This document shows positions 11,408 to 64,000 of a stretch of 64,000 nucleotides of DNA, one piece after another. Position 1 is the stretch's first letter. Every line of letters starts with the position of its first letter. The notes under the pieces were generated by a model that saw only the letters and a program-made list of their open reading frames with translations, did no database searches and was not told where the DNA came from. The position numbers were made by a program, and so were the translations under genes. This stretch comes from Bacteroidaceae bacterium (GTDB taxonomy: Bacteria; Bacteroidota; Bacteroidia; Bacteroidales; Bacteroidaceae), in contig DAIRSI010000010.1 of NCBI GenBank assembly GCA_036804505.1, positions 32,552 through 96,551 of the forward strand, given 5' to 3'.

Positions 11408-11446
11408 AAAAGTACGGTTTTTTTCTTAAATCAGAAATTAATTGTG

Positions 11447-11454
11447 TATTTTTG
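11447..11454 (+). promoter_or_regulatory. Bacteroides-type -7 box TATTTTTG
   Basis: Matches TAnnTTTG, 41 nt upstream of ATG 11496. Confidence 0.45.
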
Positions 11455-11495
11455 CCTTTTAAAGAGATAATGTGATAATAAAATAAAATAAAGTC

Positions 11496-49683: not shown

Positions 49684-50778
49684 TTATTTTAAACAGTCTT
49701 TTCTATAATTTTTGTAGTTATTAAGAAGAATATAATCCAATATTGTCATGGAGGCCATCGCTTCAACAACCGGCACTGCACGTGGAAGGACACAAGCATC
49801 GTGTCTTCCTCTGGCTTTTATTGTTGTTTCATTGCCTTCAGTGTCAACAGTGGCTTGTTCCATCAAAATCGTGGCGACTGGCTTGAATGCAACTCGAAAA
49901 TAAATGTCTTGTCCGTTGCTGATTCCTCCTTGTATTCCTCCTGAACGGTTTGTCCGGGTTTCTATGTGCCCTTCGTCGTTGAAAAAAACATCATTTTGTT
50001 GCGAACCTCTCAGTTCCATGTGGCTGAATCCCTGTCCGTATTCAAATCCCTTTGCAGCATTGATGCTCATCATGGCTCCGGCAAGAGCTGCTTGAAGCTT
50101 TCCGAAGACTGGTTCTCCCAATCCTGCGGGACAGCCTTTTATCACACAGGTTATCACGCCGCCTATGGTATCGCCTTTGCCTTTTACTTCGGCAACGAGA
50201 TTTTCCATTTTTGCGGCAGTTTCAGGATCCGGGCATCTCACCATATTGGTCTCCGTCAGGCTTAAGTCATATTCCGTGTAATCTTTGTCCAAGACAATGG
50301 GTCCTATCTGGGAAGTATATGCCTGAATCTGGATTCCTTTGCTTTTCAGTGCCAGTTTTGCCAAGGCGCCTCCCACACAGCGTGCAATTGTTTCGCGTGC
50401 CGAAGAACGTCCACCTCCCCGATAGTCTCGTATTCCATATTTAGTGAAATAGGTGAAGTCGGCATGAGAGGGACGAAACACATTCCGCAAATTCTCATAG
50501 TCATTGCTATGCTGATTCTCGTTGCGCACGATGAAGCCGATGGGGCAACCTGTACTTTTCCCTTCGAAAATGCCCGAAAGAAACTCAACTTTGTCATCTT
50601 CCTTTCTAGGAGTAGTGAGTTTGTTTTGTCCGGGTTTGCGGCGATTCAGTTCTTCTTGAATAAAGTCCAAGTCGATATCTATACCGGAAGGAAACCCATC
50701 GATTACTCCTCCTATGGCGGGTCCGTGGGATTCTCCAAAGCTGGTCAGTCTGAATATATTTCCGAAGGTATTACTCAT
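49684..50778 (-). CDS. aroC: chorismate synthase
   Basis: 364 aa. N-terminal ..[18 protein letters not shown].. and a full-length AroC pattern. Confidence 0.93.
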
Positions 50779-50789
50779 GATTTATTATT

Positions 50790-51395
50790 TTAGTGACATT
50801 GTCCGCATCCGCAACCGTCTTCGTGGTGATGATCGCACTTATCTCCGCACTCATCTCCGCAGTCGCCTCCACAGCCGTCGCATCCGCAACCGCATCCTTC
50901 TCCGCTCAACATGTTCAGCGTATTTTGGATTTCTGTGTTGGTGGCTTCACGTGATTCTACTATTTCACCTTCGAATGTAAGGTCTTTGCCTGCCAACGGA
51001 TGATTAAGGTCGAGAATAACGGTTTCTTCTTTTACTTCAGCCACCAAACCATTGAAACGGTCGCCGTCTGCATTACTCAAAGGAACCACATTGCCTGCAT
51101 AGATGTTTTCTTCATCGAATTTACCGTCGATTTTGAAAATGTCTTTCGATACTTCCAATACTCTGGCTTCTTCTCTTTCTTCATAGGCATCTTTCACCGG
51201 TATGGTGAAGTTGAATTTATCGCCGGCATTCAGATTTTTCAATTGATTTTCGAAAGCGTCCAGAGTTGTGCCAAGTCCTGAGATAAACTGGAAAGGGCGT
51301 TCTTTAGTAGCTTTTTCTACAAGTTCTCTTTTACCTTGGTTATCGACGTAAAGTTCGTAAGCAACCGTGATATACTTGTTTGGGGTTGTTTCCAT
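50790..51395 (-). CDS. slyD: FKBP-type peptidyl-prolyl isomerase SlyD with a Cys/Gly/Asp/His-rich C-terminal tail
   Basis: 201 aa. FKBP plus IF-domain pattern (..YELYVDN.., ..LDLNHPLAGKDL.F.G.I..), with tail GCGCGCDGCGGDCGDECGDKCDHHHEDGCGCGQCH. Confidence 0.88.
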   Translation of the reverse strand: METTPNKYITVAYELYVDNQGKRELVEKATKERPFQFISGLGTTLDAFENQLKNLNAGDKFNFTIPVKDAYEEREEARVLEVSKDIFKIDGKFDEENIYAGNVVPLSNADGDRFNGLVAEVKEETVILDLNHPLAGKDLTFEGEIVESREATNTEIQNTLNMLSGEGCGCGCDGCGGDCGDECGDKCDHHHEDGCGCGQCH

Positions 51396-51428
51396 AAATT
51401 TCTATTGTTTTTAATTGATAATTTCATG

Positions 51429-51436
51429 CAAAGATA
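51429..51436 (-). promoter_or_regulatory. Bacteroides-type -7 box (TATCTTTG on minus strand)
   Basis: CAAAGATA on + strand, ~33 nt upstream of ATG 51395. Confidence 0.5.
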
Positions 51437-51518
51437 CAGCTTTATTTTCAATTATTCGGTATCCTTTTTAGTATTCTGCAAAATTAACTGATTATATAAA
51501 AAAGGTGTAACCTGTGGA

Positions 51519-51607: not shown

Positions 51608-53953
51608 TTATGCATATGGTAAAATTACTGAGAATGTGCTTCCTTTACCTACTTCGGATTCGACTTCAATACGTCCATTCATTTTTTGCATGATGATTCG
51701 TGAAATGGAAAGCCCTAAACCTGTTCCTTGTACAAATTCATCTGATTTGTAGAATCTGTCGAATATCAGCTTTTGTTCTTCTTTCGTAATTCCTTTTCCG
51801 GAATCGTCTACGGATATTTTGACTTCTTTTTGACAGTCATTATAGGTGAGGCTAAGCTTTATAAATCCTTTTGCGGTGAATTTATTGGCATTGCTTAGAA
51901 AATTTGTAACGACTTGGGTCAATCTTAAACGGTCAATCAGAATATTTTCAGACTTGTGATCTTGGGGAATGACAAGAGAAAAATTCAGATTTTTGTTGAT
52001 GATGACGCGATGAGTCTGGTATATTTCATGAATGATTTCATTGGCAGGAAATATTTTCATATTGAATGATAAATTTCCGGATTCTATTCGCGACATTTCC
52101 AGAACATCGTTTACCAATTTCAATAAATTTTCATTGTTCCTTTGTATGATATCGATGAAACTGGCTTTTTCTTCTTCGGACAATTCGTTGTCGGGATCGG
52201 CCAGCAGATTGGAGAATCCAACAATGGCGTTAAGGGGAGTGCGTATTTCATGACTCATATTAGCCAGAAAAGATTGTTTCAGCTCGGCTTGTTCTGCGAG
52301 TTCTTTGGCTTTAATCAGTTCGAACTCTCTTTGTTTCGACCTTTCAATATCTTGCAATAATCCGCAAGTAACGGCTTCTCCGTTGAATTCCGAATTGCGG
52401 AATCTCCATTCTACCCAAATGTATTCTTGAGGAACTGTCGATGATATTTTCATTTGGTAGATGTGAGTCTTTTTGTCGTTTTTCTTGTATTGGAAATTAA
52501 GATTCAACAACATGGTGTTGAATTCATCCATATCTTGAGGATGTATCAGTTCCCTTAACTTATCAACAGAAAGATGTATATCATTTATTGGAATAATCTG
52601 AGCTGCTGATTCATCGAATTTGAAATATCCGTTTTGGTAACTCCATGCCGCGTTTTGTGAACCTCTGATAGACAAGTATAGTTTGTTTTGAAGAGATTCC
52701 ATTTTTTTGAGACGGTTGTTTTGAACTTTGTTCTTTTTAATTTGCTTAATCCATCCCGAAATTGAAATTGAGATGGAACCGAGTATAATGATGCATAAAA
52801 CAATCAAAAGAGTTTTATGTTTAAGATACCAAGGGTAGTTTATTATTTTTACGTCCGAAGATAATGAATCAAGGTCCAGATAATTATATTTCGAAGCTAT
52901 TGCCCAATCTATTATATATTCCTTAGCCAAATCGATACGCCTTTGGCTAGGATATTTGTTGTTGAAAAGTTCTGCGGCAAGATCGCAAACCGTCTGTGCT
53001 GTTATTTCGTCTGAAGAAAAATATCCTCCAGTTATTTCACATTCGTTGAGTCCTTCTCTGATGCAACTGAATACCGGGCTTGGAAAGAGAGATGATATGG
53101 AACAAAGAGTCATATCCATAGAATCTATTAGAAAAATCCGGCTTTCCTTTGTCTGAGTTTGATTGAAATTGGATATGATTTGATATCCGTCAAGAAATCT
53201 GATAGGTATTATTTTAAAATAAATGTTGGATTTTATGTATCTTTTCGATTGATTGATAGAGTCAAAATCCGCTATCGTCTTGTACCATGTTTTTTTTGAT
53301 TCGTTGGATACGTTGCCTTCATAATAGGATGTTATGTAATGAGTCTTTTCAACTTGGGATAAATAGGATTGGATTGCAATTTTATCCAGTGTGCTTGTAC
53401 TGTAATTTATGCATATAGCCAATGGTTGCGGTCTCTTATATATCTTTTTTATGAATTGTGCGTTCTTAATGAAATTAGGGGTGTCTGCAAGACAATAGAC
53501 AGGGTTATTGCGATTCTCTTCCAGCTCTTTCTTGTTTGGATAATGAATGCCCATTAGAATGCTAGGACATTTTTTTAGTAGAGGGTGCTTAGTCTTTAAG
53601 AATGAATATGCACCTTGGTCATTTTGAACAATGATGAGATCGACATGCAAAGATGCGATGCTGTTTAAAATGAGTTTCATTTGTTCAATTTCTTCAAAAG
53701 AACCATATTTTTCACAATTGAGATATTTCTCATAAAAGGAAACTCGAAATCCCTTTTTTTTCAGATTGTATTCGATAAGTCCTTTCATGTTTTTTTGCCC
53801 TACGTCCGCTGGAGTAAAAGAATAAATAATAGCAACTTTTTTCAATGGCATGTCTTTATTGTTTCCATCATTTTTTGCTGAAAACAACATGGTTGCTATG
53901 ATAATTAGTACAATCGTTATAGCTATGTATATTTTATACATCCTTCTAAACAT
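51608..53953 (-). CDS. sensor histidine kinase with a periplasmic-binding-protein-like N-terminal domain, TM, PAS-like region, HisKA and HATPase_c
   Basis: 781 aa. H-box MSHEIRTPLNAI, N-box ..NANKFT.., G-boxes DDSGKGI and GTGLGLS. TM segments near residues 10-25 and ~390-410. Confidence 0.88.
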   Translation of the reverse strand: MFRRMYKIYIAITIVLIIIATMLFSAKNDGNNKDMPLKKVAIIYSFTPADVGQKNMKGLIEYNLKKKGFRVSFYEKYLNCEKYGSFEEIEQMKLILNSIASLHVDLIIVQNDQGAYSFLKTKHPLLKKCPSILMGIHYPNKKELEENRNNPVYCLADTPNFIKNAQFIKKIYKRPQPLAICINYSTSTLDKIAIQSYLSQVEKTHYITSYYEGNVSNESKKTWYKTIADFDSINQSKRYIKSNIYFKIIPIRFLDGYQIISNFNQTQTKESRIFLIDSMDMTLCSISSLFPSPVFSCIREGLNECEITGGYFSSDEITAQTVCDLAAELFNNKYPSQRRIDLAKEYIIDWAIASKYNYLDLDSLSSDVKIINYPWYLKHKTLLIVLCIIILGSISISISGWIKQIKKNKVQNNRLKKMESLQNKLYLSIRGSQNAAWSYQNGYFKFDESAAQIIPINDIHLSVDKLRELIHPQDMDEFNTMLLNLNFQYKKNDKKTHIYQMKISSTVPQEYIWVEWRFRNSEFNGEAVTCGLLQDIERSKQREFELIKAKELAEQAELKQSFLANMSHEIRTPLNAIVGFSNLLADPDNELSEEEKASFIDIIQRNNENLLKLVNDVLEMSRIESGNLSFNMKIFPANEIIHEIYQTHRVIINKNLNFSLVIPQDHKSENILIDRLRLTQVVTNFLSNANKFTAKGFIKLSLTYNDCQKEVKISVDDSGKGITKEEQKLIFDRFYKSDEFVQGTGLGLSISRIIMQKMNGRIEVESEVGKGSTFSVILPYA

Positions 53954-53971
53954 AAAGACTCAATTATTCTT

Positions 53972-54712
53972 TTATTTTACGTATATATTTAATTTTTCCC
54001 ATATACGGCCGGGAATCATTTTCCATAAGGAAGTCAATATGCGGTATTTCCAGTCGATAACGCGGATACGGCATTTCTTTTCAAGTGCATCGGCAATTTC
54101 CAGAGCCACTTTATCAGGGCTCAACATCATAGGGTAATTGTGATTGTCGTTGAGTAAAGCTGTGGATACAAAGCCCGGACGAATATCCGTGATATGTATA
54201 TTCAGCTTTTCCATTCCAGCCAATTGAACCAGACTTTGCAAATAAGTGTTTTGAAATCGTTTAGTGGCAGAATAGGAGGGTGCTACACCTATACCTTTGG
54301 TTCCGGCGATGGATGTGATGGCTGCAATATGTCCTCCTTCGGGAATATCTCGAAAATAGTTGAATGCCGTGTCAATCATGCGAACGAATCCTTCGCCATT
54401 AGTCTGTAAAGTTTCGGTTTCAATATTTTGGTCTAAATGACGGTTTTGTTTGCCTATTCCCGAACTGTGGAAGTATATATCCAGCCCGCCCAATCTTTTA
54501 ATAAGGTCAAGCAGAATGGTTGGGGAATCGGTATTTCTTATGTCAATTTGAGCAATTTCAATAGTTTCTGGTGATAGCGATTTAAGATCATAAAGCTCTT
54601 GAATTCTTCTACCGCAAAGTCCTACTTTCCAACCTTTTTTGATATATATAAGAGCAACTTCTCGTCCTATGCCCGATGTGGCTCCCATGATAATGATTCT
54701 TTTTTTCTCCAT
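53972..54712 (-). CDS. SDR family oxidoreductase
   Basis: MGATSGIGREVA cofactor motif and catalytic YSATK. ATG 54712 preferred over the TTG at 54715. Confidence 0.88.
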   Translation of the reverse strand: MEKKRIIIMGATSGIGREVALIYIKKGWKVGLCGRRIQELYDLKSLSPETIEIAQIDIRNTDSPTILLDLIKRLGGLDIYFHSSGIGKQNRHLDQNIETETLQTNGEGFVRMIDTAFNYFRDIPEGGHIAAITSIAGTKGIGVAPSYSATKRFQNTYLQSLVQLAGMEKLNIHITDIRPGFVSTALLNDNHNYPMMLSPDKVALEIADALEKKCRIRVIDWKYRILTSLWKMIPGRIWEKLNIYVK

Positions 54713-54753
54713 CAAAAAATATTTACAGTATCACTCCTTTTTGCTGTCAATTG

Positions 54754-54761
54754 CAAAGATA
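54754..54761 (-). promoter_or_regulatory. Bacteroides-type -7 box (TATCTTTG on minus strand)
   Basis: CAAAGATA on + strand, ~41 nt upstream of ATG 54712. Confidence 0.45.
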
Positions 54762-54833
54762 TAAAAAAACTTTCGTACAAGCGTATTTTGTTTCTCTTTT
54801 TATCTAATTGTTCTTTAATTGGAAAAAAGGATG

Positions 54834-54841
54834 TATATTTG
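54834..54841 (+). promoter_or_regulatory. Bacteroides-type -7 box TATATTTG
   Basis: Matches TAnnTTTG, 18 nt upstream of ATG 54860. It is the only consensus box I found ahead of the 54860-62312 gene string. Confidence 0.5.
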
Positions 54842-54859
54842 CAGAGCTAAAAAAAGCGT

Positions 54860-55894
54860 ATGGAGAATACTGGAGATACAAAGCCTTTAATGGGAATGAC
54901 ACTCAGCCAGATACAGAATGTGGTGAAGTGCGTGGGGATGCCTGGCTACACAGCCAAGCAGATAGTTTCATGGCTGTATGTCAAAGGTGTGAAGTCAATT
55001 GATGAAATGACCAATTTGTCATTGAAGAATAGGGAAGTACTCAAGGAACGTTTCTCTATCGGTGCTTCTGATCCCGTGGACAGCATGCGTTCTCAAGACG
55101 GAACGGTGAAGTACCTGTATCAGACGTCGGAAGGCAACTTTGTGGAAACAGTATATATCCCGGAGGAAGACAGAGCTACTCTTTGTGTTTCCTCCCAAGT
55201 GGGATGTAAAATGAACTGTTCTTTTTGCATGACCGGGAAACAAGGTTTTTCCGCCAATCTGACAACAAATGAAATTTTGAATCAGATTTATTCCTTGCCT
55301 GAACGTGAGAATTTGACTAATATCGTGTTCATGGGTATGGGCGAACCTTTCGATAATCTGGATAATGTTCTGCCTGCTTTGGATATTCTTACGTCGGATT
55401 ATGGATATGGTTGGAGTCCGAAACGAATAACGGTAAGCAGTGTGGGCTTGAGAAAAGGATTGACTCGTTTCATAGAGGAAAGCGAATGTCATCTGGCCAT
55501 CAGTTTGCATACACCTGTATCCGTTCAGAGAAGTGCGATGATGCCTGCTGAAAAATCTTTTGCCATTTCAGAGATTGTGGAGGAACTTAAACAATATGAT
55601 TGGAGCAAGCAGCGCCGCCTTTCTTTCGAATATATTGTATTTAAAGGTCTCAATGATTCCTTGGTTTATGCAAAGGAATTGGTGAAGCTTTTGCGAGGAT
55701 TGGATTGTAGAGTGAATCTCATACGGTTTCATTCTATTCCGGGTGCTGATTTTCAGGGAGCGGATGAAGAGACGATGATGGCATTTCGTGACTATCTCAC
55801 CGATCACGGCATATTTTCTTCCATACGTGCATCCCGAGGAGAAGATATTTTCGCTGCATGCGGAATGCTTTCAACGGCGAAACAGAAAAAATAA
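54860..55894 (+). CDS. rlmN: 23S rRNA (adenine2503-C2)-methyltransferase, radical SAM
   Basis: 344 aa; ..CVSSQVGCKMNCSFCMTG.. (CxxxCxxC) and C-terminal ..GEDIFAACGML... Confidence 0.92.
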   Translation: MENTGDTKPLMGMTLSQIQNVVKCVGMPGYTAKQIVSWLYVKGVKSIDEMTNLSLKNREVLKERFSIGASDPVDSMRSQDGTVKYLYQTSEGNFVETVYIPEEDRATLCVSSQVGCKMNCSFCMTGKQGFSANLTTNEILNQIYSLPERENLTNIVFMGMGEPFDNLDNVLPALDILTSDYGYGWSPKRITVSSVGLRKGLTRFIEESECHLAISLHTPVSVQRSAMMPAEKSFAISEIVEELKQYDWSKQRRLSFEYIVFKGLNDSLVYAKELVKLLRGLDCRVNLIRFHSIPGADFQGADEETMMAFRDYLTDHGIFSSIRASRGEDIFAACGMLSTAKQKK

Positions 55895-55919
55895 TAACGA
55901 ATAAAAAGATAAAGGGCTT

Positions 55920-56969
55920 ATGAAAAGGTTGATCATTAGTATGAGCGTCATAACATTGGTAATGCTTTCGCTCGTGTCTTGTAGAAATAAGAAAAGCGGG
56001 ACCGACTTGTTGACACCGGCCTCCAGCGGGCGTCCTTATGAAGTCACGGTGATTATGGCTGACAGTCTTTGGAACAGACCTGCAGGACGTGCAGTCTTTG
56101 CGGCACTGGATACCGATGTACCCGGATTGCCCCAATCCGAGCGTTCGTTCTTTATCTACCATATGGATGTACAGAATTATGACCAGATTACCAGATTGTC
56201 CCGAAACTTGATTTTGGTTGACATAAATCCGAATCTGTATACACAGACAAAATTCAAATATCAGCGGGATGTTTATTCTTCTCCGCAGATGATCATGACG
56301 ATACAGTCACCCGATGAGAATGAACTGACAGCTTATGTGAATACTCATCGGAATGCAATTGTGGAATTCTTTACTCTCGCTGAAATGAATCGAGAAGTGG
56401 AATTCCTGAAACAACATCACAACAGAAATCTTTCGGATAAGGTTAAGGAAATGTTTAATTGCGAAATGAATATTCCCGAAGAACTCAGATCGTTCAAAGT
56501 AGGCAAGGATTTTGTCTGGGCATCGACCAATAAGGGAACTGCCGATATGAATTTCGTAATGTATTCCTATCCTTACACGAGTAACAAGACATTTACCAAA
56601 GAATATTTTATTGCCAAGCGTGATTCTTTCATGAAAGCGAATATACCGGGAGCAAAGCCGAATATGCATATGGCTACCGATTCAGAGTTTGTGGACGTGA
56701 AGAATATTATGGTAAAGAAGAATTACGCAATGGAAGCTCGCGGATTATGGGAAATGGAACACGACATGATGGGTGGACCGTTCGTTTCACACAGCAGTGT
56801 GGATACCGTGAACAACCGAGTAATTGTGGTAGAGGGATTTGTGTATGCCCCCGATACCAAGAAAAGAGATTTGATGAGAAAGATGGAAGCATCTCTCTAT
56901 ACCCTTCAGTTGCCTGCAGGACCTAAAAAAGTCCCGGGAATGAAGGCCGCCAGTAAAAAAACAAAATAA
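55920..56969 (+). CDS. lipoprotein of unknown function (DUF4837-like)
   Basis: 349 aa. Lipobox ..MLSLVSC. The family name comes from memory of Bacteroidetes proteins with ..GRPYEV.V....W....G......D.PGLPQ.E..F pattern. Confidence 0.7.
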   Translation: MKRLIISMSVITLVMLSLVSCRNKKSGTDLLTPASSGRPYEVTVIMADSLWNRPAGRAVFAALDTDVPGLPQSERSFFIYHMDVQNYDQITRLSRNLILVDINPNLYTQTKFKYQRDVYSSPQMIMTIQSPDENELTAYVNTHRNAIVEFFTLAEMNREVEFLKQHHNRNLSDKVKEMFNCEMNIPEELRSFKVGKDFVWASTNKGTADMNFVMYSYPYTSNKTFTKEYFIAKRDSFMKANIPGAKPNMHMATDSEFVDVKNIMVKKNYAMEARGLWEMEHDMMGGPFVSHSSVDTVNNRVIVVEGFVYAPDTKKRDLMRKMEASLYTLQLPAGPKKVPGMKAASKKTK

Positions 56970-56978
56970 AGATTGAAC

Positions 56979-58079
56979 ATGGAAAATAGGAAAATACGTG
57001 TAGGTATTACCCAAGGCGATATCAATGGGATTGGATATGAAGTGATTTTGAAAACTTTTGCCGAACCCATGATGCTCGACTTCTGTACACCCATATTATA
57101 TGGTTCGCCCAAAGTCGCTTCATATCACCGAAAAGCTTTGAATTTGCCTACTAATTTTACGATAGTAAACAGTGCCTCGGATGCCTCGGATAACAGATTG
57201 AACGTGATTAACTGCAACGAGGAAGAGGTAAAAGTAGATTTGGGGAAACCTACGGAAGAAGCCGGAAAAGCAGCTTTGCAAGCCTTGGAACGTGCGATTG
57301 AAGAATATAAGGATGGCTTGATTGATGTCTTGGTGACTGCACCTATAGACAAACACAGCATACAAAGTGATACGTTCCGTTTTCCCGGACATACAGAATA
57401 TCTCGAAGAAAAAGCCGGAGAAGGGAAAAAATCTCTGATGATTCTGATGAAAGACGAACTCCGTGTGGCGCTGGTAACGACTCATGTGGCAATCAGAGAT
57501 CTTGCTGCATCTATCACGCAAGAGTTGGTTGAAGAAAAAATACGTATCTTCAACACTTCCTTGAAGCAAGACTTTAATATTGATTGTCCTCGAATAGCCG
57601 TACTGGCACTTAATCCTCATGCAGGAGACAATGGCTTGATCGGTTCCGAGGAACAGACTGTTATTTCTCCTGCGATACAGACTATGGCAGCCAAAGGGGT
57701 TCAATGTTTTGGCCCTTATCCTGCTGATGGATTTATGGGGAGCGGAAACTATACAAAATTCGATGGTATTCTGGCGATGTATCATGACCAGGGACTGGCT
57801 CCGTTTAAGGTGATAGCCATGGATGAAGGCGTTAATTATACGGCTGGCCTTCCTTTGATACGTACATCTCCAGCGCATGGAACTGCATATGATATAGCCG
57901 GAAAAGGATTGGCTTCGGAAGAATCTTTCCGACAAGCTATCTATACGGCAATTGATATCTACAGAAATCGCAGACACGAAGAAGTTATACATAGAAACCC
58001 TTTGCGTAAACAATATTATGACAAACATGATGACAGCGACAAATTGAAATTGGATGCTGTGGATGATGATAAGTTTTGA
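56979..58079 (+). CDS. pdxA: 4-hydroxythreonine-4-phosphate dehydrogenase
   Basis: ..GITQGDINGIGYEV.., ..LNPHAGDNGL.., ..TSPAHGTAYDIAGKG... ATG 56979 preferred over the TTG at 56973. Confidence 0.92.
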   Translation: MENRKIRVGITQGDINGIGYEVILKTFAEPMMLDFCTPILYGSPKVASYHRKALNLPTNFTIVNSASDASDNRLNVINCNEEEVKVDLGKPTEEAGKAALQALERAIEEYKDGLIDVLVTAPIDKHSIQSDTFRFPGHTEYLEEKAGEGKKSLMILMKDELRVALVTTHVAIRDLAASITQELVEEKIRIFNTSLKQDFNIDCPRIAVLALNPHAGDNGLIGSEEQTVISPAIQTMAAKGVQCFGPYPADGFMGSGNYTKFDGILAMYHDQGLAPFKVIAMDEGVNYTAGLPLIRTSPAHGTAYDIAGKGLASEESFRQAIYTAIDIYRNRRHEEVIHRNPLRKQYYDKHDDSDKLKLDAVDDDKF

Positions 58080-58086
58080 TTAAGAG

Positions 58087-58794
58087 ATGAAATTTGCAAT
58101 AATAGCGGCTGGTGAAGGTTCACGGTTGGCACAGGAAGGTGTGAAACTTCCAAAACCTTTGGTTAAGGTAAATGGCAAAGCCATGATTGACAGACTGGTT
58201 GAACTGTTTGTCGAGAACGGAGCTAAAGAAATTGTTATCATTGTTAATAATGAAACACAGCAAGTTCAAGAGCATGTGAGAAATTTGCAAAGCAGATTCC
58301 CTATCAGGCTTGTCGTGCAATCCACTCCCAGTTCTATGCATAGTCTATATGCAATCAGTCCTTACTTAAAAGGTGATTCTTTCTGTCTGACAACAGTAGA
58401 TACGATTTTCCGTCCCGAAGAATTTTCCGAATATATCCGCAGCTTTCAGAAAGAGCAAGCTGACGGTATGATGGCGGTTACAGACTTTATCGATGATGAA
58501 AAGCCATTGTATGTTTCCACAGATGAAAATCTGTACATCAGCGGTTTTCATGATTCAATGCCGTCGAACTGCAAATATATAAGTGGTGGAATTTATTGTC
58601 TTCCTTCTAAGGCACTTGATGTTCTCGAAGATTGTATACATAAAGATATGTCGAGAATGAGAAATTTTCAGAGGCAGTTAGTTGCTGATGGCTTGATATT
58701 GAAAGCCTATCCTTTCAGCAAAATTCTGGATGTGGATCATGCAGAAGATATTCTTAAAGCTGAGGCTTTTTTGAAAGAAGGAGACGGAAAATGA
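58087..58794 (+). CDS. NTP-transferase (sugar/alcohol-phosphate nucleotidylyltransferase; LicC/IPCT-sized cytidylyltransferase-like)
   Basis: 235 aa. N-terminal MKFAIIAAGEGSRL...LPKPLVKVNGK signature of the nucleotidyltransferase fold. Confidence 0.82.
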   Translation: MKFAIIAAGEGSRLAQEGVKLPKPLVKVNGKAMIDRLVELFVENGAKEIVIIVNNETQQVQEHVRNLQSRFPIRLVVQSTPSSMHSLYAISPYLKGDSFCLTTVDTIFRPEEFSEYIRSFQKEQADGMMAVTDFIDDEKPLYVSTDENLYISGFHDSMPSNCKYISGGIYCLPSKALDVLEDCIHKDMSRMRNFQRQLVADGLILKAYPFSKILDVDHAEDILKAEAFLKEGDGK

Positions 58795-59654
58795 CGGCTG
58801 TGAAAGAAATGCATATAACAGGTGTTAGTAGAGGCAAGGAATTTTCTCCAAATTTGGAGAATAATGATGACGCCATATTTCATGCTGTCGAAGATAATTT
58901 GCGGTTGTTGGGATATAAAGTATCTGTTTGCTGTGAAAAAGATTTTGTCAAGCAGACTTGCGAAAGCCAAGTTATATTTAATATGGCAAGGGACACATCC
59001 ACACTTAAGCGTTTGAAAGAACTTGAACAAGAAGGATGTTTCGTAGTCAATTCAGCTTTTGGAATTGAAAACTGTATTCGTAAAAGAATGACGGAACTGC
59101 TGCTCGAACATCAAATACCTCATCCTGTAAGTTTGATAATCCCTACAGATTTGAAAGCGATTCCTGAAGATTGGAAATATCCGTGTTGGGTGAAACGTGG
59201 TGATTCACATGCCATGTTGAAACAGGATGTGAGTTATGCCGAAACGGAACAGGATGTCTTGAATATCCTTGGAGATTTTAAAAGTAGAAATATTCCTTCC
59301 GCAGTTCTCAATGAACATTTGGCAGGAGATTTGGTAAAATTTTATGGAGTTCAGGGAACCGGCTTTTTTTATTGGTATTATTCATCTCCGTCCGGCCATA
59401 GTAAATTTGGTCTGGAAGCCATTAATGGAGAAGCTCGTGGATTACCTTTTGAAGAAAGCAGCTTGAAGCATTATGCCGATGAAGCATCTTTGGCTTTGGG
59501 AGTTCCCGTATATGGGGGAGACTGTGTTATAACTTCACCCGGACAAATGAAAATAATAGATTTTAATGACTGGCCAAGCTTTTCATGTTGCCGTGCAGAT
59601 GCAGGCTTAAATATAGCAAAATATATTCATCAGTCAATAGAAGCAAGATATTAA
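58791..59654 (+). CDS. hypothetical protein, ATP-grasp-like fold suspected (kinase or ligase)
   Basis: 287 aa; ..YPCWVKRGDSHAM..., ..LAGDLVKFYGV.., ..GGDCVITSPGQMKIIDFNDWPSF, resembling ATP-grasp strand/Mg-site patterns. ATGA overlap with the upstream gene. Confidence 0.6.
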   Translation: MTAVKEMHITGVSRGKEFSPNLENNDDAIFHAVEDNLRLLGYKVSVCCEKDFVKQTCESQVIFNMARDTSTLKRLKELEQEGCFVVNSAFGIENCIRKRMTELLLEHQIPHPVSLIIPTDLKAIPEDWKYPCWVKRGDSHAMLKQDVSYAETEQDVLNILGDFKSRNIPSAVLNEHLAGDLVKFYGVQGTGFFYWYYSSPSGHSKFGLEAINGEARGLPFEESSLKHYADEASLALGVPVYGGDCVITSPGQMKIIDFNDWPSFSCCRADAGLNIAKYIHQSIEARY

Positions 59655-59662
59655 AATAAAAA

Positions 59663-60586
59663 ATGGAAAACGAAAAACAACATCAGAAAGGGCTTGACGC
59701 TACGTTGAAATCCAAAGATACGGAAGAGTGGCTTGATATTCATTTCACCCGCCCCTTAGGTTATGCATGGGCACTTTTTTTCAATAAATTCAACATTCAT
59801 CCGAATGTAGTTACCATCCTATCTATTATATTGGGAGTAGCAGCCGGATATTGTTTTTATTATCCTGATACATTACATACCGTCATAGGTATACTTTTAC
59901 TCATTTGGGCAAATATCTATGACAGCACGGATGGACAGCTTGCCAGAATGACTGGGAAGAAAACCCGATGGGGAAGAATGCTCGATGGATTTGCCGGAGA
60001 TTTATGGTTCTTTGCAATCTATCTGGCAATCTGTCTGCGTCTGTATGATGAATGGGGAATGACCATTTTTATTATAGCAGCACTTTCGGGTTTCGTTTTT
60101 CATTCCTCGCAATGTCAGTTGGCTGATTATTATAGAAACATACATCTGTATTTCCTGAAAGGAGCGGAAGGAAGCGAGCTGGATACTTTCCGCCAACAGC
60201 GTGAGATACTTCATTCCCTTCCATGGAAACACAATTTTTGGTGGAAGATGTTTCTATATTTTTATGGAAACTACACTCATGCGCAAGAGAGGATGACACC
60301 AAATTTCCAAGATTTGAAGGTCGTCCTGAAGACTCGTTACAATGGAAGCATACCTCAAGATTTTAGAGATAAATTCTTAAACGGGAGTCGGCCATTGATG
60401 AAGTATACAAATATACTTACATTCAATACTCGAGCTATAGCTTTGTATATTAGTTTGCTTATAGGAGAACCTCAGTATTATTTTTATTTTGAAATCATTG
60501 TACTGACTGTCATATATTTTTATATGCGTCATCGCCATGAAGCAATGTGTGGTCGTATGTGCAATGAGCTCATACATACAATGTAG
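59663..60586 (+). CDS. CDP-alcohol phosphatidyltransferase family membrane protein
   Basis: 307 aa, polytopic. Motif YDSTDGQLAR-MTGKKTRW-G-RML-D-GFAG-D, i.e. Dx2DGx2ARx8Gx3D with the last Asp shifted by one residue. Confidence 0.85.
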   Translation: MENEKQHQKGLDATLKSKDTEEWLDIHFTRPLGYAWALFFNKFNIHPNVVTILSIILGVAAGYCFYYPDTLHTVIGILLLIWANIYDSTDGQLARMTGKKTRWGRMLDGFAGDLWFFAIYLAICLRLYDEWGMTIFIIAALSGFVFHSSQCQLADYYRNIHLYFLKGAEGSELDTFRQQREILHSLPWKHNFWWKMFLYFYGNYTHAQERMTPNFQDLKVVLKTRYNGSIPQDFRDKFLNGSRPLMKYTNILTFNTRAIALYISLLIGEPQYYFYFEIIVLTVIYFYMRHRHEAMCGRMCNELIHTM

Positions 60587-60589
60587 ATT

Positions 60590-61606
60590 ATGAAAAGCAA
60601 GTATCGTAACATATTTTTGCTATTTGGCATTGTGGCGATTGTCATTATGCTTTTTTCCTTCGATATGCGGTGGGGTGAATTGTGGAGTAAACTGTATACA
60701 GCCGGATGGTGGTTCATTGCCGTTTTGTTCCTTTGGTTTTTTATATATATTGTAAATGCCTTGTCATGGTATGTTATTATTCGGGATGGGAAAAAGGGAT
60801 ATCGTGTTCCCTTTTGGACAATTTATAAACTTACTATTTCGGGATTTGCTTTGAATTATGCCACACCTGTGGGACTGATGGGAGGTGAACCGTATCGTAT
60901 TATGGAATTGACTCCTTATGTCGGAGCCAGTAAAGCAACGTCGTCTGTCATTCTTTACGTGATGATGCATATTTTTTCTCATTTCTGTTTCTGGTTCAGT
61001 TCCATATTCCTATATATAGCACTTTATAAAGTAGATTTCGCCATGGGTGTTCTTTTAACGGTCATCGGGACATTCTGTTTGGTAGTCATTTATTTCTTTA
61101 CGAGAGGCTATCGGAAGGGAATGGCTGTGAAAACGTTGAAGTTTCTGAAGAGATTACCTTTTGTCAAGAATTGGGCTTCTCATTTTTATGAACGTCAAGA
61201 GGAAACATTGCGGAAAATAGATGAGCAGATTGCGGAATTGCACAAGCAGCGAAAAGAAACATTCTATATGTCCTTGGGACTTGAGTTCTGTGCTCGTATT
61301 ATGACTTGTCTTGAAATCTTTTTTATTTTAAAAATACTAACCAACGATGTAAGTTTTCCTGCATGTATTTTGATTATGGCTTTTTCATCCTTATTCAGTA
61401 ATCTCATGTTTTTTTCACCGATGCAATTGGGAGCACGCGAAGGCGGATTGGCTTTGGCTGTCGGCAGCCTTTCCATACCAGGAGCTTTTGGCGTCTATAC
61501 AGGATTGATTACTCGTGTAAGAGAATTGATATGGATATCCATTGGAATGTTTTTAATGAAAGTAGGAAATAAAAAACCGGCAAAGGAGAATTTAACAAAT
61601 GATTGA
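60590..61606 (+). CDS. flippase-like membrane protein (lysylphosphatidylglycerol-synthase TM region / UPF0104 family)
   Basis: 338 aa, about 8 TMs; ..SGFALNYATPVGLMGGEPYRIMEL.. matches the conserved loop of this family as I recall it. Confidence 0.72.
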   Translation: MKSKYRNIFLLFGIVAIVIMLFSFDMRWGELWSKLYTAGWWFIAVLFLWFFIYIVNALSWYVIIRDGKKGYRVPFWTIYKLTISGFALNYATPVGLMGGEPYRIMELTPYVGASKATSSVILYVMMHIFSHFCFWFSSIFLYIALYKVDFAMGVLLTVIGTFCLVVIYFFTRGYRKGMAVKTLKFLKRLPFVKNWASHFYERQEETLRKIDEQIAELHKQRKETFYMSLGLEFCARIMTCLEIFFILKILTNDVSFPACILIMAFSSLFSNLMFFSPMQLGAREGGLALAVGSLSIPGAFGVYTGLITRVRELIWISIGMFLMKVGNKKPAKENLTND

Positions 61607-62312
61607 TTTGAAAGATATAAAGGGCATAATATTCGATTATGGAGGTACAATCGATACGAATGGAGACCATTGGGCGGAAGTCTTATGGGATGCTTACAAA
61701 AAGTTTGATGTGCCGGTAAATAAGGAACAGTTCCGGAATGCCTATGTCCTAGCAGAAAGAGCGATGGCGAAGTTTCCCTATGTCAGAACAGATTTTGACT
61801 TTAAAGATGTCTTAAGAGTTAAAATTGATTTGGAACTCAGCTTTTTGGAAGAAGATGGAGCTATGGTCTTTCATGAAATCAATCACAGGAAGTTGTGTCT
61901 TCAGCTTTCTTCGTGGTGTTATAGTTATGTAAGAAATGTTTTGCAGGTCACCCGGATGGTTGTGAATACTCTGGCTCAGAACAGGAAGCTTGTTCTGGTT
62001 TCTAACTTTTATGGAAATATCCAGACAATTTTGAAAGATTTTGATTTGGACAGATATTTCCAGGAAATCATTGAGTCTTCTGTTGTTGGTGTCAGAAAAC
62101 CTGATCCTGCCATTTATCAAATGGGAATTGATGCTATGGGGCTGCCAGCTGAGAATATTCTTGTGGTAGGCGATTCATACGGAAAGGATATGGAGCCGGC
62201 AATGATTTTGGGATGTCATACGGCATGGATAAAAGGTCGTGAATGGAAACATGAGGAACATGATGAATCGAAAATTGATTTTGTTATAACTGATTTAAAA
62301 CAACTGATTTGA
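61599..62312 (+). CDS. HAD-IA family hydrolase (phosphatase)
   Basis: 237 aa. Motif I IIFDYGGTID, motif II LVSNF, motif III ..VRKPDP.., motif IV VVGDSYGKD. 8-nt overlap with the upstream gene. Confidence 0.85.
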   Translation: MIDLKDIKGIIFDYGGTIDTNGDHWAEVLWDAYKKFDVPVNKEQFRNAYVLAERAMAKFPYVRTDFDFKDVLRVKIDLELSFLEEDGAMVFHEINHRKLCLQLSSWCYSYVRNVLQVTRMVVNTLAQNRKLVLVSNFYGNIQTILKDFDLDRYFQEIIESSVVGVRKPDPAIYQMGIDAMGLPAENILVVGDSYGKDMEPAMILGCHTAWIKGREWKHEEHDESKIDFVITDLKQLI

Positions 62313-62348
62313 AATAACTGATAAACTAACAAAAGATAGGAGATAAAA

Positions 62349-63587
62349 ATGAGTAGCAAGAAACAAGCTTCACTGGTTGGTGACGGATATATGTTATCCT
62401 TCTTCTTGATCACCTTCTTTTTCTTTTTATGGGGATTTGCCAGGGCAATCCTTGATGTGTTGAATCCATTCTTTCAAGAAACACTGGCTTTAACCAAAAC
62501 AGAAGCTTCTGCAATACAGTTTGTAACCTATCTTGCTTATTTCATCATGGCCGTTCCTGCGGGAATTTTCATAAGAAAACATGGAACTCGCAAAGGAGTC
62601 GTGCTTGGCTTGATAGCTTTCGGATTGGCTGCTGTTCTTTTCTATTTCAATTCCTATGCAGGGAAAGCTGCATTTTTCTATTATTTATCTTTATTATTCG
62701 TTATCGGATGCGGTCTTGCTTGTTTGGAAGTAGCTGCCAATCCTTATGTGACTCTTCTTGGTGCAAAGGAAACTGCAGCAAGCCGATTGAACCGTGCCCA
62801 GTCATTCAATGGATTGGGATGTATTTTCGGTTCTTTAATGGGTGGCTTTTATTGCTTTTCGAATGAAAACCCTGATATCTCTTATCCTTATGTTATTATA
62901 GGTATTGTCGTTTTGGTCATAGCTGTTATCTTTTCCCGCATCAAACTACCTGAATTTGTCATTAAGAGTTCGTCTTCCCAACAGTCGGTGGGAGAAGGTA
63001 AGATATATGAGCACCCTATGTTTCTTTTTGGTTTGTTTGCTTTGTTCTGCTACGAAGTTTCCGAAATTTCTATTAATTCCTTTTTTATTAATTATGCGGC
63101 GGAAAATGATTTGACGGGCTTGATTACGCATCAGTTGTCAGGAATGAATCCAAAGCTTATTGCATCTATCGTTCTGTCCATCGGTTTACTCCTTTTTATG
63201 GGAGGCCGGTTCATCGGAAGTTGGATTATGGAATATATACGTGCTGAAAAGATTCTTTTGATATGTGCAATATCGGCCGTAGTTATGACTTCCATTGTCG
63301 TGGTGGATTTGCCTGTTATTTCTTTAATTGCAGCCATGTTTATTTTCGTTTCTGAATCGATTATGTTTCCCACCATATTTGCTTTGTCAATCCGAGACCT
63401 TGGAGGATTGACTCAAAAAGCTTCTTCTATATTAATGATGACTCCGATTGGGGGTGCCGTCGGGACTGTTCTAATGGGCATGGCAGCGGATGAAAGTACA
63501 ATGACCTTGTCATTTATGGTTCCGCTTATATCTTTTGCAGTAGTATTAATTTATGCTTATACGATATTGATTCGTACGAAGAAGTAA
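62349..63587 (+). CDS. sugar MFS transporter, FucP/GluP (fucose-glucose-galactose:H+ symporter) family
   Basis: 412 aa, 12 TMs; ..FFFFLWGFARAILDVLNPFFQETL.. resembles the FucP N-terminal signature. Confidence 0.82.
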   Translation: MSSKKQASLVGDGYMLSFFLITFFFFLWGFARAILDVLNPFFQETLALTKTEASAIQFVTYLAYFIMAVPAGIFIRKHGTRKGVVLGLIAFGLAAVLFYFNSYAGKAAFFYYLSLLFVIGCGLACLEVAANPYVTLLGAKETAASRLNRAQSFNGLGCIFGSLMGGFYCFSNENPDISYPYVIIGIVVLVIAVIFSRIKLPEFVIKSSSSQQSVGEGKIYEHPMFLFGLFALFCYEVSEISINSFFINYAAENDLTGLITHQLSGMNPKLIASIVLSIGLLLFMGGRFIGSWIMEYIRAEKILLICAISAVVMTSIVVVDLPVISLIAAMFIFVSESIMFPTIFALSIRDLGGLTQKASSILMMTPIGGAVGTVLMGMAADESTMTLSFMVPLISFAVVLIYAYTILIRTKK

Positions 63588-63588
63588 A

Positions 63589-64000
63589 TCAATGTCTTTT
63601 TATAATACTTCTGATAGCCTCTTCGTCTTTATCAAACGGACCCGATGTCTCTAGCTTGATAGTTGACATGGCCGCTGCAAATTTTCCGGACTCCTCATAT
63701 CCTAATCCTTGCACCCGGCAGTAGAGATAACCAGTAGAATAGGTATCACCGCAACCGGTAGGGTCAATCAGTTCTTTCGGAGGATAAGCTTCAATTTCGT
63801 AATAATTACCATCGGCATAAATCAACGAACCATAACTTCCGGTGGTAACGACAACCTCTTTTACTCCCCAATCGGCAATTTGTTTTGCTGCGGCGTGAGC
63901 TTCATTTTTTCCGGTAAGTACTTCCATTTCATATTCATTGACTTTCAATGTGTGAATATATTTCAATGTTTCCAGCTTGTCTTTCCAATCAACTGCTATA
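63589..64000 (-). CDS. PfkB-family carbohydrate kinase, C-terminal part; gene continues past the right edge
   Basis: PfkB signature 2 ..DPTGCGDTYSTGY... The frame stays open upstream of the track start (..IAVDWKDKLETLKYIHTLKVNEYE..) to nt 64000. Confidence 0.85.
   Translation of the reverse strand, partial: IAVDWKDKLETLKYIHTLKVNEYEMEVLTGKNEAHAAAKQIADWGVKEVVVTTGSYGSLIYADGNYYEIEAYPPKELIDPTGCGDTYSTGYLYCRVQGLGYEESGKFAAAMSTIKLETSGPFDKDEEAIRSIIKRH

Follow-up and report, generated by a model that had tools for sequence, protein, structure and literature searches.

A conserved five-gene module in a Bacteroidaceae genome, with an ATP-grasp core member, is probably the alternative, P. vulgatus-type inositol-lipid cluster of the Bacteroidales

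Which product is made by a packed set of genes encoding an NTP transferase, a CDP-alcohol phosphotransferase and three partners of less obvious role? The genes lie near the end of the window (the whole stretch of Bacteroidaceae DNA analyzed, 64,000 nucleotides), and the original prediction, made from the letters alone, read them as an unassigned pathway to a phospho-head-group lipid or phosphodiester. The features are as follows.

58087-58794, + strand: NTP transferase, 235 aa (ORF list)
58791-59654, + strand: ATP-grasp-fold protein (ORF2), 287 aa (ORF list)
59663-60586, + strand: CDP-alcohol phosphotransferase (ORF3), membrane protein, 307 aa (ORF list)
60590-61606, + strand: LPG_synthase_TM/UPF0104 polytopic membrane protein, 338 aa (ORF list)
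61599-62312, + strand: HAD-superfamily hydrolase, 237 aa (ORF list)
62349-63587, + strand: MFS sugar-type permease, 412 aa (Pfam MFS_1)
63589-64000, - strand: PfkB-family kinase, 3' part, cut by the window end (full length 290 aa)

The ORF list reproduces the exact coordinates of the five packed genes, which share the + strand (58087-62312). Direct reading of the sequence shows the NTP transferase and ORF2 genes overlapping in an ATGA at 58791-58794, and the ORF coordinates imply an 8-nt overlap at 61599-61606 as well as gaps of 8 and 3 nt. The five-gene run thus stands, but its predicted extent was too short: pdxA ends 7 nt before the NTP transferase gene and 36 nt separate the HAD gene from the MFS gene behind it, so that the co-directional packed run spans 54860-63587. 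Module order and content are kept in 75-80 of 80 species-representative genomes retrieved via ORF3 (close set), where the neighbors of ORF3 occur in the same order (NTP transferase 79/80, ORF2 79/80, LPG_synthase_TM 75/80, HAD 80/80) with median intergenic gaps of -4 to +19 nt. Among 80 more remote metagenomic loci (distant set), the NTP transferase, ORF2 and the transferase are found together in 77-80, HAD in 64 and the LPG_synthase_TM gene in only 32.

The locus and its counterpart in Phocaeicola (Bacteroides) vulgatus ATCC 8482 correspond in every gene and in gene order: rlmN, DUF4837 and pdxA upstream, then the genes for the NTP transferase, a 283-aa protein, the transferase, the LPG_synthase_TM protein and HAD, followed by MFS, PfkB (- strand) and myo-inositol-phosphate synthase (MIPS; PF07994+PF01658). 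The P. vulgatus orthologues are 67% (NTP transferase), 66% (ORF3) and 57% (HAD) identical, and these three, BVU_RS13095/13105/13115, were described by Heaver et al. 2022 as a “putative alternative inositol lipid cluster” of P. vulgatus and Prevotella (PMC9246714). In the same study B. vulgatus and P. veroralis produce PI-DHC without BT_1522/23/25 genes (PMC9246714). The pathway can therefore no longer be called unassigned, and an orthologous cluster with an assigned product nearly exists; that assignment combines in silico prediction with a lipid phenotype. A 2023 review describes the alternative cluster as “predicted in silico”, and our literature search found no cluster enzyme assayed or deleted and no confirmation later than that review. 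The published scheme comprises three genes only and gives HAD the role of a PI-to-PI-DHC transferase; the LPG-synthase-like gene is touched on in passing, and the ATP-grasp gene, the permease and the PfkB kinase go unmentioned (PMC9246714).

That no MIPS gene is present, as the original prediction remarked, is an artefact of where the window was cut. Contigs from the same species (DNA 99.55% identical over 11,652 bp) extend beyond the window end and carry the PfkB kinase gene followed by MIPS, which starts 745 bp beyond base 64000. Co-occurrence with MIPS holds in part: where the flank is long enough, 21/69 and 20/46 loci contain MIPS, and in 15 of these it is the gene immediately behind HAD; given one MIPS gene per few-Mb genome, the chance expectation is well below 1%. 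MIPS is missing from the fetched flanks of more than half of the loci. The complete PfkB gene (same-species contig L081, 11241-12113) encodes a protein whose top PDB match is TM0415 (E 4e-33), a myo-inositol 1-kinase (PMC5931981). The inositol contacts of TM0415 (D11, N78, Q141, R145) and its catalytic D234 are conserved, the PPi residues R229 and R232 are replaced by Pro and Cys, and the NXXE motif is canonical; the protein is probably an ATP-dependent myo-inositol kinase. The MFS gene follows HAD in 53 of the 80 close loci, and its product, which matches the NCBIfam fucP (232 bits) and gluP models under cutoff, is possibly an accessory inositol importer. Taken with gene content, folds and conservation, we consider the module to be the Bacteroidales “alternative” (P. 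vulgatus-type) inositol-lipid cluster, operating in a Kennedy-like manner with the head group activated rather than the lipid, with a probability of roughly 0.75.

Profile searches bore out the predicted families of the NTP transferase, the CDP-alcohol transferase, the LPG_synthase_TM protein and HAD. The NTP transferase matches Pfam NTP_transferase/NTP_transf_3 (E ~3e-14), and its top solved relative is 4JD0 (E 1.2e-9, residues 4-218), the T. maritima inositol-1-phosphate cytidylyltransferase (PMC12275187); LicC ranks lower. GEGSRL, PKPL and VDTIF align with GAGKRL, PKV and GDSLF of 4JD0, and the IPCT/DIPPS NCBIfam model matches over the full length (E 1.2e-14), far under its equivalog cutoff. 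The enzyme is probably a CTP:inositol-phosphate cytidylyltransferase producing CDP-inositol. Similarity to 4JD0 leaves the substrate unfixed because Caulobacter CpgD likewise matches 4JD0 best, yet uses phosphoglycerate.

ORF3 belongs to PF01066 (CDP-OH_P_transf; 50.3 bits, cutoff 22). AF2299 is both its top PDB sequence match (E 2e-6) and the best fold match of its AF2 model (pLDDT 82), ahead of PgsA1, IPCT-DIPPS and CEPT1. The motif D87xxD90G91xxA94R95-x8-G104xxxD108xxxxD113 is at least 98% conserved in 73 orthologues, with the fourth Asp one residue late relative to the canonical spacing. NCBIfam models for archaetidylinositol-phosphate synthase (1.1e-13), PIP synthase (1.7e-9) and DIPPS (2.9e-6) all match far under their cutoffs, and the BT1523 model reaches 19.7 bits against a cutoff of 350. 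This placement, closest to AF2299, AIP/PIP synthases and DIPPS within the family, favors the inositol-lipid reading, and ORF3 is probably a CDP-inositol:lipid-alcohol inositolphosphotransferase; fold and profile searches do not discriminate between CDP-inositol and CDP-diacylglycerol as its predicted donor.

The order of these matches, and the PgsA1 and PIPS structures among the fold matches, would also suit the route of B. thetaiotaomicron (BT_1523, BT_1525, BT_1522) and mycobacteria, in which ORF3 would join CDP-diacylglycerol and inositol phosphate to phosphatidylinositol phosphate, HAD would dephosphorylate it, and the NTP transferase and ATP-grasp protein would serve otherwise. Such a route shares the expected products (PI, PI-DHC), the MIPS input and a nearby LPG_synthase_TM gene, and would give an obvious job to the hydrolase, which adjoins the transferase gene and is fused to it in one locus (L127) and in P. 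veroralis (PMC9246714). There, however, the lipid (CDP-DAG) is activated instead of the head group, and the route uses a PgpA-type phosphatase and a distinct IPC synthase. We regard this route as unlikely here: the NCBIfam scores are far under cutoff, the closest solved match is AF2299 rather than a PIP synthase, and an IPCT-like NTP transferase present in 79/80 loci is left unexplained. HAD itself also fits poorly. It matches Pfam Hydrolase, HAD_2 and Hydrolase_like (E 1e-14 to 5e-15 for HAD_2/Hydrolase), and the motif register is set by position 1 of the HAD_2 profile, which falls on residue 10. Motif I then reads D13-Y-G15-G-T17 (DYGGT), and Gly takes the place of the Asp+2 general acid; FDYGGT is kept in at least 98% of 79 orthologues, and S135, K167, D192 and D197 are present. 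Since the Asp+2 general acid is missing, the predicted removal of a terminal phosphate by a HAD-IA phosphatase is doubtful.

The ATP-grasp protein is strongly conserved (79/80 close and 80/80 distant loci); it is a universal core member. No Pfam family, Ins134_P3_kin included, matches the ORF2 family even at E≤10 (32 members searched), and RimK-type NCBIfam models match below threshold. The predicted fold is nevertheless upheld: the AlphaFold2 model (pLDDT 89.5, pTM 0.88) retrieves RimK, LysX/ArgX and Ddl with Foldseek at E ~1e-14 and TM ~0.7, with PPIP5K2 at rank 41. Searching PDB with the family profile yields PsnB (8e-6), ITPK4 (4.5e-4) and ITPK1s (~2e-3), and aligns I-D-F-N-D-W-P-S-F of ORF2 to the ITPK D-x-N-x-aromatic-P-S/G-F/Y; K135, K183, D244 and N259 are invariant. 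ORF2 thus has its fold and its C-terminal Mg/ATP motif (G-G-D ... I-D-x-N-x-aromatic-P-S-F/Y) in common with the ITPKs of plants, amoebae and humans, but the ITPK matches span a mere ~50 residues and are weak (E between 4.5e-4 and 3e-3), and the ligases PsnB, RimK, LysX and Ddl match equally well or better. In 30/80 distant loci the NTP transferase and ORF2 form one ORF, with the ATP-grasp part behind. ORF2 represents an undescribed ATP-grasp family, kinase or ligase, with predicted functional coupling to the cytidylyltransferase. As originally noted, no published version of the pathway includes such an enzyme.

The ligase-like matches, with PsnB the best by profile, would fit a lipid or surface polymer carrying another phospho-head-group, such as phosphoglycerol, phosphoglycerate or an alcohol that bears an amino acid, with ORF2 as a ligase and the MIPS link merely regional synteny. 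Same-fold cytidylyltransferases such as CpgD do take varied substrates, and most loci have no MIPS in the fetched flanks. This is quite improbable, given that the 15 loci with MIPS directly after HAD come from diverse lineages beyond the Phocaeicola synteny block, that the locus also holds an inositol-type PfkB kinase gene, and that species with the cluster make PI-DHC without BT-type genes.

The LPG_synthase_TM protein matches PF03706 over its full length (108 bits, cutoff 33.4) and the HpnL subfamily model under cutoff; its GGEPYR loop is conserved, and for this predicted 8-TM protein a crude hydropathy scan indicates a polytopic topology. Such a partner was thought foreign to inositol pathways, yet its homologue BT_1521 adjoins the B. 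thetaiotaomicron inositol-lipid cluster (PMC9246714), and PF01066+PF03706 fusion proteins exist (P0026). It is a putative lipid translocase and accessory member.

The closest solved structures for both enzymes come from hyperthermophile IPCT/DIPPS systems, with 4JD0 nearest the NTP transferase, AF2299 (4O6M) nearest ORF3 and A. fulgidus IPCT-DIPPS (4MND) among the ORF3 fold matches; A. fulgidus IPCT-DIPPS is a fusion whereas the module has separate genes, transferase identity is low (12-16%), equivalog thresholds are unmet and the product is a soluble osmolyte rather than the lipid proposed here. Synthesis of a soluble di-myo-inositol-phosphate-type diester (CDP-inositol plus inositol phosphate to DIPP, then dephosphorylation by HAD) would suit the bifunctional IPCT/DIPPS model matching both enzymes, the IPCT-DIPPS fold match and the conserved hydrolase, but is very unlikely. 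DIP is a hyperthermophile solute, the carriers here live as mesophiles in the gut, and DIPPS comes last among the relevant ORF3 matches. The membrane protein often found in the module and the lipids made by species that carry it favor a lipid product, and motif I of HAD is unusual for a phosphatase.

In the preferred inositol-lipid pathway, inositol phosphate would come from the nearby MIPS and, as a second likely source, from salvage via the MFS permease and the TM0415-like kinase. The NTP transferase would convert inositol phosphate and CTP to CDP-inositol, and ORF3 would transfer phosphoinositol to a membrane alcohol, the acceptors we infer being dihydroceramide directly and diacylglycerol, yielding PI-DHC and PI. 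The LPG_synthase_TM protein, if present, may translocate or otherwise handle the finished lipid. The NTP transferase-ATP-grasp and transferase-HAD fusions pair these proteins as consecutive steps; ATP-grasp and HAD would add two conserved steps, the former most probably phosphorylating inositol or inositol phosphate at the expense of ATP. A precedent in pathway logic is the experimentally established Rhodothermus marinus pathway (Jorge, Borges and Santos 2015, as cited in PMC4587543), in which IPCT-made CDP-inositol is passed to a lipid alcohol by the CDP-alcohol phosphotransferase BEPIS, and the IPCT and BEPIS genes are clustered with MIPS, as here. As that citing source presents it, the R. 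marinus acceptor is dialkylether glycerol and no ATP-grasp, HAD or LPG_synthase_TM protein is required.

Against this reading, a simple three-enzyme scheme gives the universally conserved ATP-grasp gene no job, HAD and the transferase depart from their canonical catalytic residues, and equivalog-level scores and MIPS linkage are as described above. The original prediction was right in its overall scheme, in which a CDP-alcohol leads to a phospho-head-group lipid. What is new beyond Heaver et al. 2022 is the ATP-grasp protein as a core member, sometimes fused to the NTP transferase, together with a HAD protein lacking the Asp+2 residue and a transferase whose fourth Asp is shifted.

The five-gene module at 58087-62312 is a further member, real and conserved, of the putative alternative inositol-lipid cluster type described from P. 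vulgatus. The original prediction had read it as five co-directional, packed ORFs, and the ORF table is identical, with all five on the plus strand. The ATGA start/stop overlap of ORF1 and ORF2 is seen directly in the sequence, and an 8-nt gap, a 3-nt gap and an 8-nt overlap are deduced from ORF coordinates. Pfam and NCBIfam profiles confirm the predicted families of four of the five proteins (all but ORF2), and by a crude hydropathy scan ORF3 and ORF4 are membrane proteins, and ORF1, ORF2 and ORF5 soluble.

Module genes (ORF table) and two downstream neighbors (family match; TM0415 match)
58087-58794, plus strand: ORF1, NTP transferase, 235 aa
58791-59654, plus strand: ORF2, ATP-grasp protein, 287 aa
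59663-60586, plus strand: ORF3, CDP-OH transferase, 307 aa
60590-61606, plus strand: ORF4, LPG_synthase_TM protein, 338 aa
61599-62312, plus strand: ORF5, HAD protein, 237 aa
62349-63587, plus strand: MFS permease, FucP/GluP-like, sugar-type
63589-64000, minus strand: PfkB kinase, truncated at the window end (full gene equivalent to window 63589-64461; 11241-12113 on the same-species contig L081)

The packed run extends beyond these five genes, starting with rlmN at 54860 and ending with the MFS permease, which lies 36 nt downstream of the HAD gene. The genes upstream of the module (54860-58079) are rlmN, DUF4837 and pdxA, which are separated from their next downstream gene by 25, 3 and 7 nt; the linkage of rlmN and pdxA to the module is retained in 68-69 of 80 related genomes, that of DUF4837 in 42/80, and the permease is found 3' of the HAD gene in 53/80. 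A scan for sigma-70 promoters and terminators, made with a tool that has no Bacteroidetes promoter models, gave counts at the level of shuffled sequence and placed no terminators between module genes. Ahead of rlmN, ~20 nt from its start (54834-54841), is TATATTTG, which we take to fit the Bacteroides -7 promoter consensus; a transcription unit of nine genes may begin here.

Genes between 24.8 and 51 kb (ABC-2/efflux systems, lysS, aroC, patatin-Omp85) have no link to the module, and no tRNAs were found in the window. The minus-strand run at 24869-45231 contains two ABC-2 permease sets with outer-membrane efflux proteins, an ABC exporter, a pyridine-nucleotide disulphide oxidoreductase and, at 43189-45231, a patatin-Omp85 fusion protein. 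G+C content drops from 0.48 to ~0.36 across 50000-51500, between the genes for chorismate synthase (49684-50778, minus strand) and a hybrid histidine kinase (51608-53953, minus strand).

The module had been regarded as an unassigned pathway, a view that does not hold, as the cluster was described and provisionally assigned in 2022. The P. vulgatus locus, beside a gene for myo-inositol-phosphate synthase (MIPS), was named a ‘putative alternative inositol lipid cluster’ consisting of an NTP transferase (BVU_RS13095), a phosphatidyltransferase (BVU_RS13105) and a HAD protein (BVU_RS13115) (Heaver et al. 2022, PMC9246714). B. vulgatus and P. veroralis produce phosphoinositol dihydroceramide (PI-DHC) without the B. 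thetaiotaomicron genes, and the published scheme runs from inositol phosphate and CTP to CDP-inositol, then with diacylglycerol to PI and on to PI-DHC (PMC9246714). We found no functional confirmation of the alternative cluster in the literature after 2022. A CDP-inositol-dependent lipid synthase clustered with genes for inositol-1-phosphate cytidylyltransferase (IPCT) as well as for MIPS has been demonstrated in Rhodothermus marinus (Jorge et al. 2015, as cited in PMC4587543); R. marinus BEPIS, BT_1521 and the T. forsythia locus were compared with the module by their published descriptions.

P. vulgatus ATCC 8482 is among 80 species-representative loci collected in a one-genome-per-species scan with an alignment of ORF3 relatives. 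Its gene order, from ORFs and Pfam matches, is rlmN, DUF4837, pdxA, NTP transferase, a 283-aa protein without a Pfam match, CDP-OH transferase, LPG_synthase_TM, HAD, MFS, PfkB (opposite strand) and MIPS (PF07994+PF01658), the order of the window from 54860 to its end. By tblastn, the NTP transferase, transferase and HAD protein share 67%, 66% and 57% identity with this locus, with order kept, and the two intervening genes 59% and 73%.

The absence of MIPS from the window, which the original prediction had noted, stands for its 64,000 nt and goes no further, since the same-species contigs L081-L086 carry MIPS past the window end. A look-up with the window's own MFS protein found it on 22 contigs. 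L081 is 99.55% identical in DNA to 52349-64000, ungapped, and runs past the window end, where it encodes a 435-aa MIPS at a position equivalent to 64745-66052; downstream of MIPS lie genes for a sigma-54 activator, lptE and secG. The lack of MIPS in the window is thus an edge effect. MIPS occurs within the fetched flanks of 21/69 and 20/46 loci (those with at least 2 kb downstream), immediately 3' of the HAD gene in 15 loci, and this linkage is far above chance for a single-copy gene.

Conservation was assessed in the 80 species-representative loci and in a second set, of 80 metagenomic loci that are 36-46% identical to the query. Gene order does not vary, and the median distances between neighboring genes run from -4 to +19 nt in the species-representative loci.

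Presence of module genes (species-representative loci; metagenomic loci)
NTP transferase: 79/80; 80/80
ATP-grasp protein (ORF2): 79/80; 80/80
CDP-OH transferase: 80/80; 77/80
LPG_synthase_TM: 75/80; 32/80
HAD: 80/80; 64/80 (many contigs end early)

These counts define a conserved core of four genes (NTP transferase, ATP-grasp, transferase and HAD), not the published three, with LPG_synthase_TM as a frequent accessory. The latter is absent in many lineages (L007, L014, L038, L041 and L043 and 48 of the metagenomic loci L087-L166), and there the HAD gene lies directly 3' of the transferase gene. ORF4 itself is a full-length member of the LPG_synthase_TM/UPF0104 family (108.2 bits, cutoff 33.4; residues 14-316 cover positions 7-298 of the 302-position profile), with a putative flippase role.

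The family assignment of ORF3 is secure, with a Pfam CDP-OH_P_transf (PF01066) score of 50.3 bits against a cutoff of 22. In its AlphaFold2 model (pLDDT 82) the best fold match is AF2299, a solved CDP-alcohol phosphotransferase (TM 0.47-0.49), followed by PIP synthases, IPCT-DIPPS and CEPT1/CHPT1; TM-scores are modest (~0.3-0.5 overall), and the top matches are all CDP-alcohol phosphotransferases. The signature D87xxD90G91xxA94R95-x8-G104xxxD108 is present (reference D1xxD2GxxAR...GxxxD3xxxD4), while the D4 position is occupied by G112, with an Asp one residue later (D113; LDGFAGD vs LDGVLD of AF2299). This shifted Asp (GRMLDGFAGD, Dx4D instead of Dx3D; residues 87-113, window 59921-60001) is invariant in 73 orthologues. 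CDP-alcohol- and CDP-DAG-using enzymes are interleaved among the fold matches, so structure does not distinguish a CDP-inositol from a CDP-DAG donor. A CDP-DAG-dependent route of the PIP-synthase type would fit the PIP synthases among these matches, and we consider it improbable for a module that also encodes an IPCT-like cytidylyltransferase.

For this cytidylyltransferase, ORF1, the closest solved relative is the T. maritima IPCT 4JD0 (E 1.2e-9), with GEGSRL, PKPL and VDTIF matching the 4JD0 motifs in the alignment. The protein has the nucleotidyltransferase fold and the GxGxRL / K / D active site of characterized IPCTs, and aligns along its whole length with the IPCT portion of the IPCT/DIPPS NCBIfam model. 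It stays below the equivalog-level IPCT score (54 bits against a cutoff of 580 for NF041135, which models the Thermococcales bifunctional enzyme). The likeness to 4JD0 can only suggest an inositol substrate, because Caulobacter CpgD also has 4JD0 as its best match and uses phosphoglycerate (PMC12275187). A head group other than inositol would follow the CpgD precedent; set beside the linkage to MIPS, it appears somewhat less probable still than a CDP-DAG donor. A soluble product of the DIP type, to which the IPCT-DIPPS likenesses of ORF1 and ORF3 might point, is very improbable beside a PI-DHC-producing P. vulgatus with the same gene order.

Fusions connect the enzymes in pairs. Some representatives of the ORF2 family are ~500-550 aa long and have an NTP transferase as N-terminal half, and the two are joined in one ORF in 30 of the 80 metagenomic loci and in none of 79 close relatives. 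Their occurrence in many independent samples indicates that these fusions are real and not sequencing errors. The transferase is fused to the HAD protein in one metagenomic locus (L127), and also in P. veroralis (PMC9246714). The fusions pair the ATP-grasp protein with the cytidylyltransferase (soluble, early steps) and the HAD protein with the transferase (late steps). Proteins combining PF01066 and PF03706 also exist (P0026).

NTP transferase-ATP-grasp fusions (L, loci; P, representative proteins)
Loci: L091, L093-L095, L097, L098, L108, L109, L129, L133, L136, L138, L143, L145-L166
Proteins: P0241, P0265, P0279, P0297, P0361, P0368, P0370, P0376, P0386

ORF2 belongs to a family of 1,242 representatives at 50% clustering. 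One 691-aa representative (P0362), a PAS/HisKA/HATPase histidine kinase joined to an ATP-grasp domain, is probably a gene-call artefact. No relevant Pfam match was found at E≤10 (32 relatives scanned), and a single-sequence PDB search returned noise only. The AlphaFold2 model from 32 homologues (pLDDT 89.5, pTM 0.88) matches RimK, ArgX/LysX and D-Ala-D-Ala ligases in Foldseek (E ~1e-14, TM ~0.7), with PPIP5K2 lower in the list, and the earlier guess of an ATP-grasp protein was correct. The three-domain fold, two ATP-binding Lys and Mg-binding acidic/Asn residues of the superfamily are all present. Since K135, K183, D244 and N259 are invariant in 121 diverse members (D257 at least 90% conserved), the family should bind ATP-Mg. 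Also borne out was the view that an ATP-grasp partner is foreign to known inositol pathways, as the published scheme consists of NTP transferase, phosphatidyltransferase and HAD (PMC9246714).

The top PDB match of a profile of the 121 sequences is the ligase PsnB (8e-6), and plant, amoebal and human ITPKs follow (4.5e-4 to 2.8e-3), sharing the segment G-G-D ... I-D-x-N-x-aromatic-P-S-F/Y. Matches to ITPK4 and ITPK1 cover just 46-53 C-terminal residues and do not make ORF2 a member of the ITPK (Ins134_P3_kin) family. Foldseek matches both ligases and inositol-phosphate kinases and does not separate them, and on sequence alone kinase and ligase appear about equally possible. Given its fusion to a cytidylyltransferase and the inositol context, we lean toward a kinase.

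The HAD protein scores above Pfam cutoffs (Hydrolase, HAD_2) and is a superfamily member. The nucleophile D13 and motifs II-IV (S135, K167, D192, D197) are intact and conserved. Motif I, with its register set by the HAD_2 alignment (residue 10 = profile position 1), reads D13-Y-G15-G-T17 (61635-61649), with Gly at Asp+2 in place of the DxDx(T/V) of HAD phosphatases, and DYGGT is conserved in at least 98% of 79 orthologues. HAD phosphomonoesterases use Asp+2 as general acid/base, and other residues stand at this position in dehalogenases, phosphonatase and P-type ATPases. Its absence here speaks against a simple phosphatase role and, judged by its motifs, this enzyme is no standard phosphatase. 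The removal of a terminal phosphate ascribed to it in the original prediction is not secure, and the same holds for the published idea of a PI-DHC synthase.

Inositol phosphate could also be supplied by salvage. The PfkB kinase matches TM0415 (E 4e-33), the Thermotoga myo-inositol 1-kinase (PMC5931981). The inositol contacts D11, N78, Q141 and R145 and the catalytic D234 of TM0415 are all conserved, Pro and Cys stand in place of its PPi-recognition residues R229 and R232, and the NXXE motif has the canonical form. The protein is thus probably an inositol kinase that uses ATP and supplies the module. The MFS permease may be an inositol importer, and the two suggest a salvage branch parallel to MIPS.

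Overall, we assign the module to an inositol-lipid route with a probability of about 0.75, and hold its individual steps with much less confidence. Inositol phosphate from MIPS and/or the permease and PfkB kinase would be converted to CDP-inositol by the NTP transferase, the transferase would put phosphoinositol onto a lipid alcohol, and the LPG_synthase_TM protein would handle the lipid. The last role is suggested by analogy to the MprF flippase domain and by a homologue beside the B. thetaiotaomicron cluster (PMC9246714). As carrier species are without an IPC synthase homologue (PMC9246714), dihydroceramide may be a direct acceptor of the transferase.

A speculative analogy with PIP-synthase logic would make the ATP-grasp and HAD proteins a kinase/hydrolase pair bracketing activation and transfer. 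It is conceivable, though we think it rather unlikely as a whole, that the published scheme is incomplete and the ATP-grasp protein is a new, distantly ITPK-like inositol(-phosphate) kinase working with the cytidylyltransferase. In that case the head group in its activated form would be either a phosphorylated CDP-inositol or an inositol phosphate that differs in regiochemistry from the MIPS product. The extra group would be taken off or passed on by the atypical HAD protein, acting with the transferase, after attachment of the head group to the lipid.

In Prevotella, the alternative cluster is the more common route, with steps that remain predictions, and the window contributes one more carrier species, an uncultured member of the Bacteroidaceae whose genome was covered here over 64 kb plus ~5 kb. 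What is of interest in the finding is the unexplained ATP-grasp partner and the atypical HAD protein; the four-gene core, the ATP-grasp-cytidylyltransferase fusion and the non-standard HAD sharpen the problem. If the incomplete-scheme reading is true, bacteria would have a fourth route to inositol lipids, not described before, and the missing inositol-activating enzymes of inositol auxotrophs like Tannerella forsythia would be identified. T. forsythia has no MIPS, depends on exogenous inositol and carries a BEPIS homologue, Tanf_07760. Inositol lipids and sphingolipids of gut Bacteroidales influence capsule expression, antimicrobial-peptide resistance and host fitness (PMC9246714), and with the permease and TM0415-like kinase some carriers may salvage dietary inositol too.
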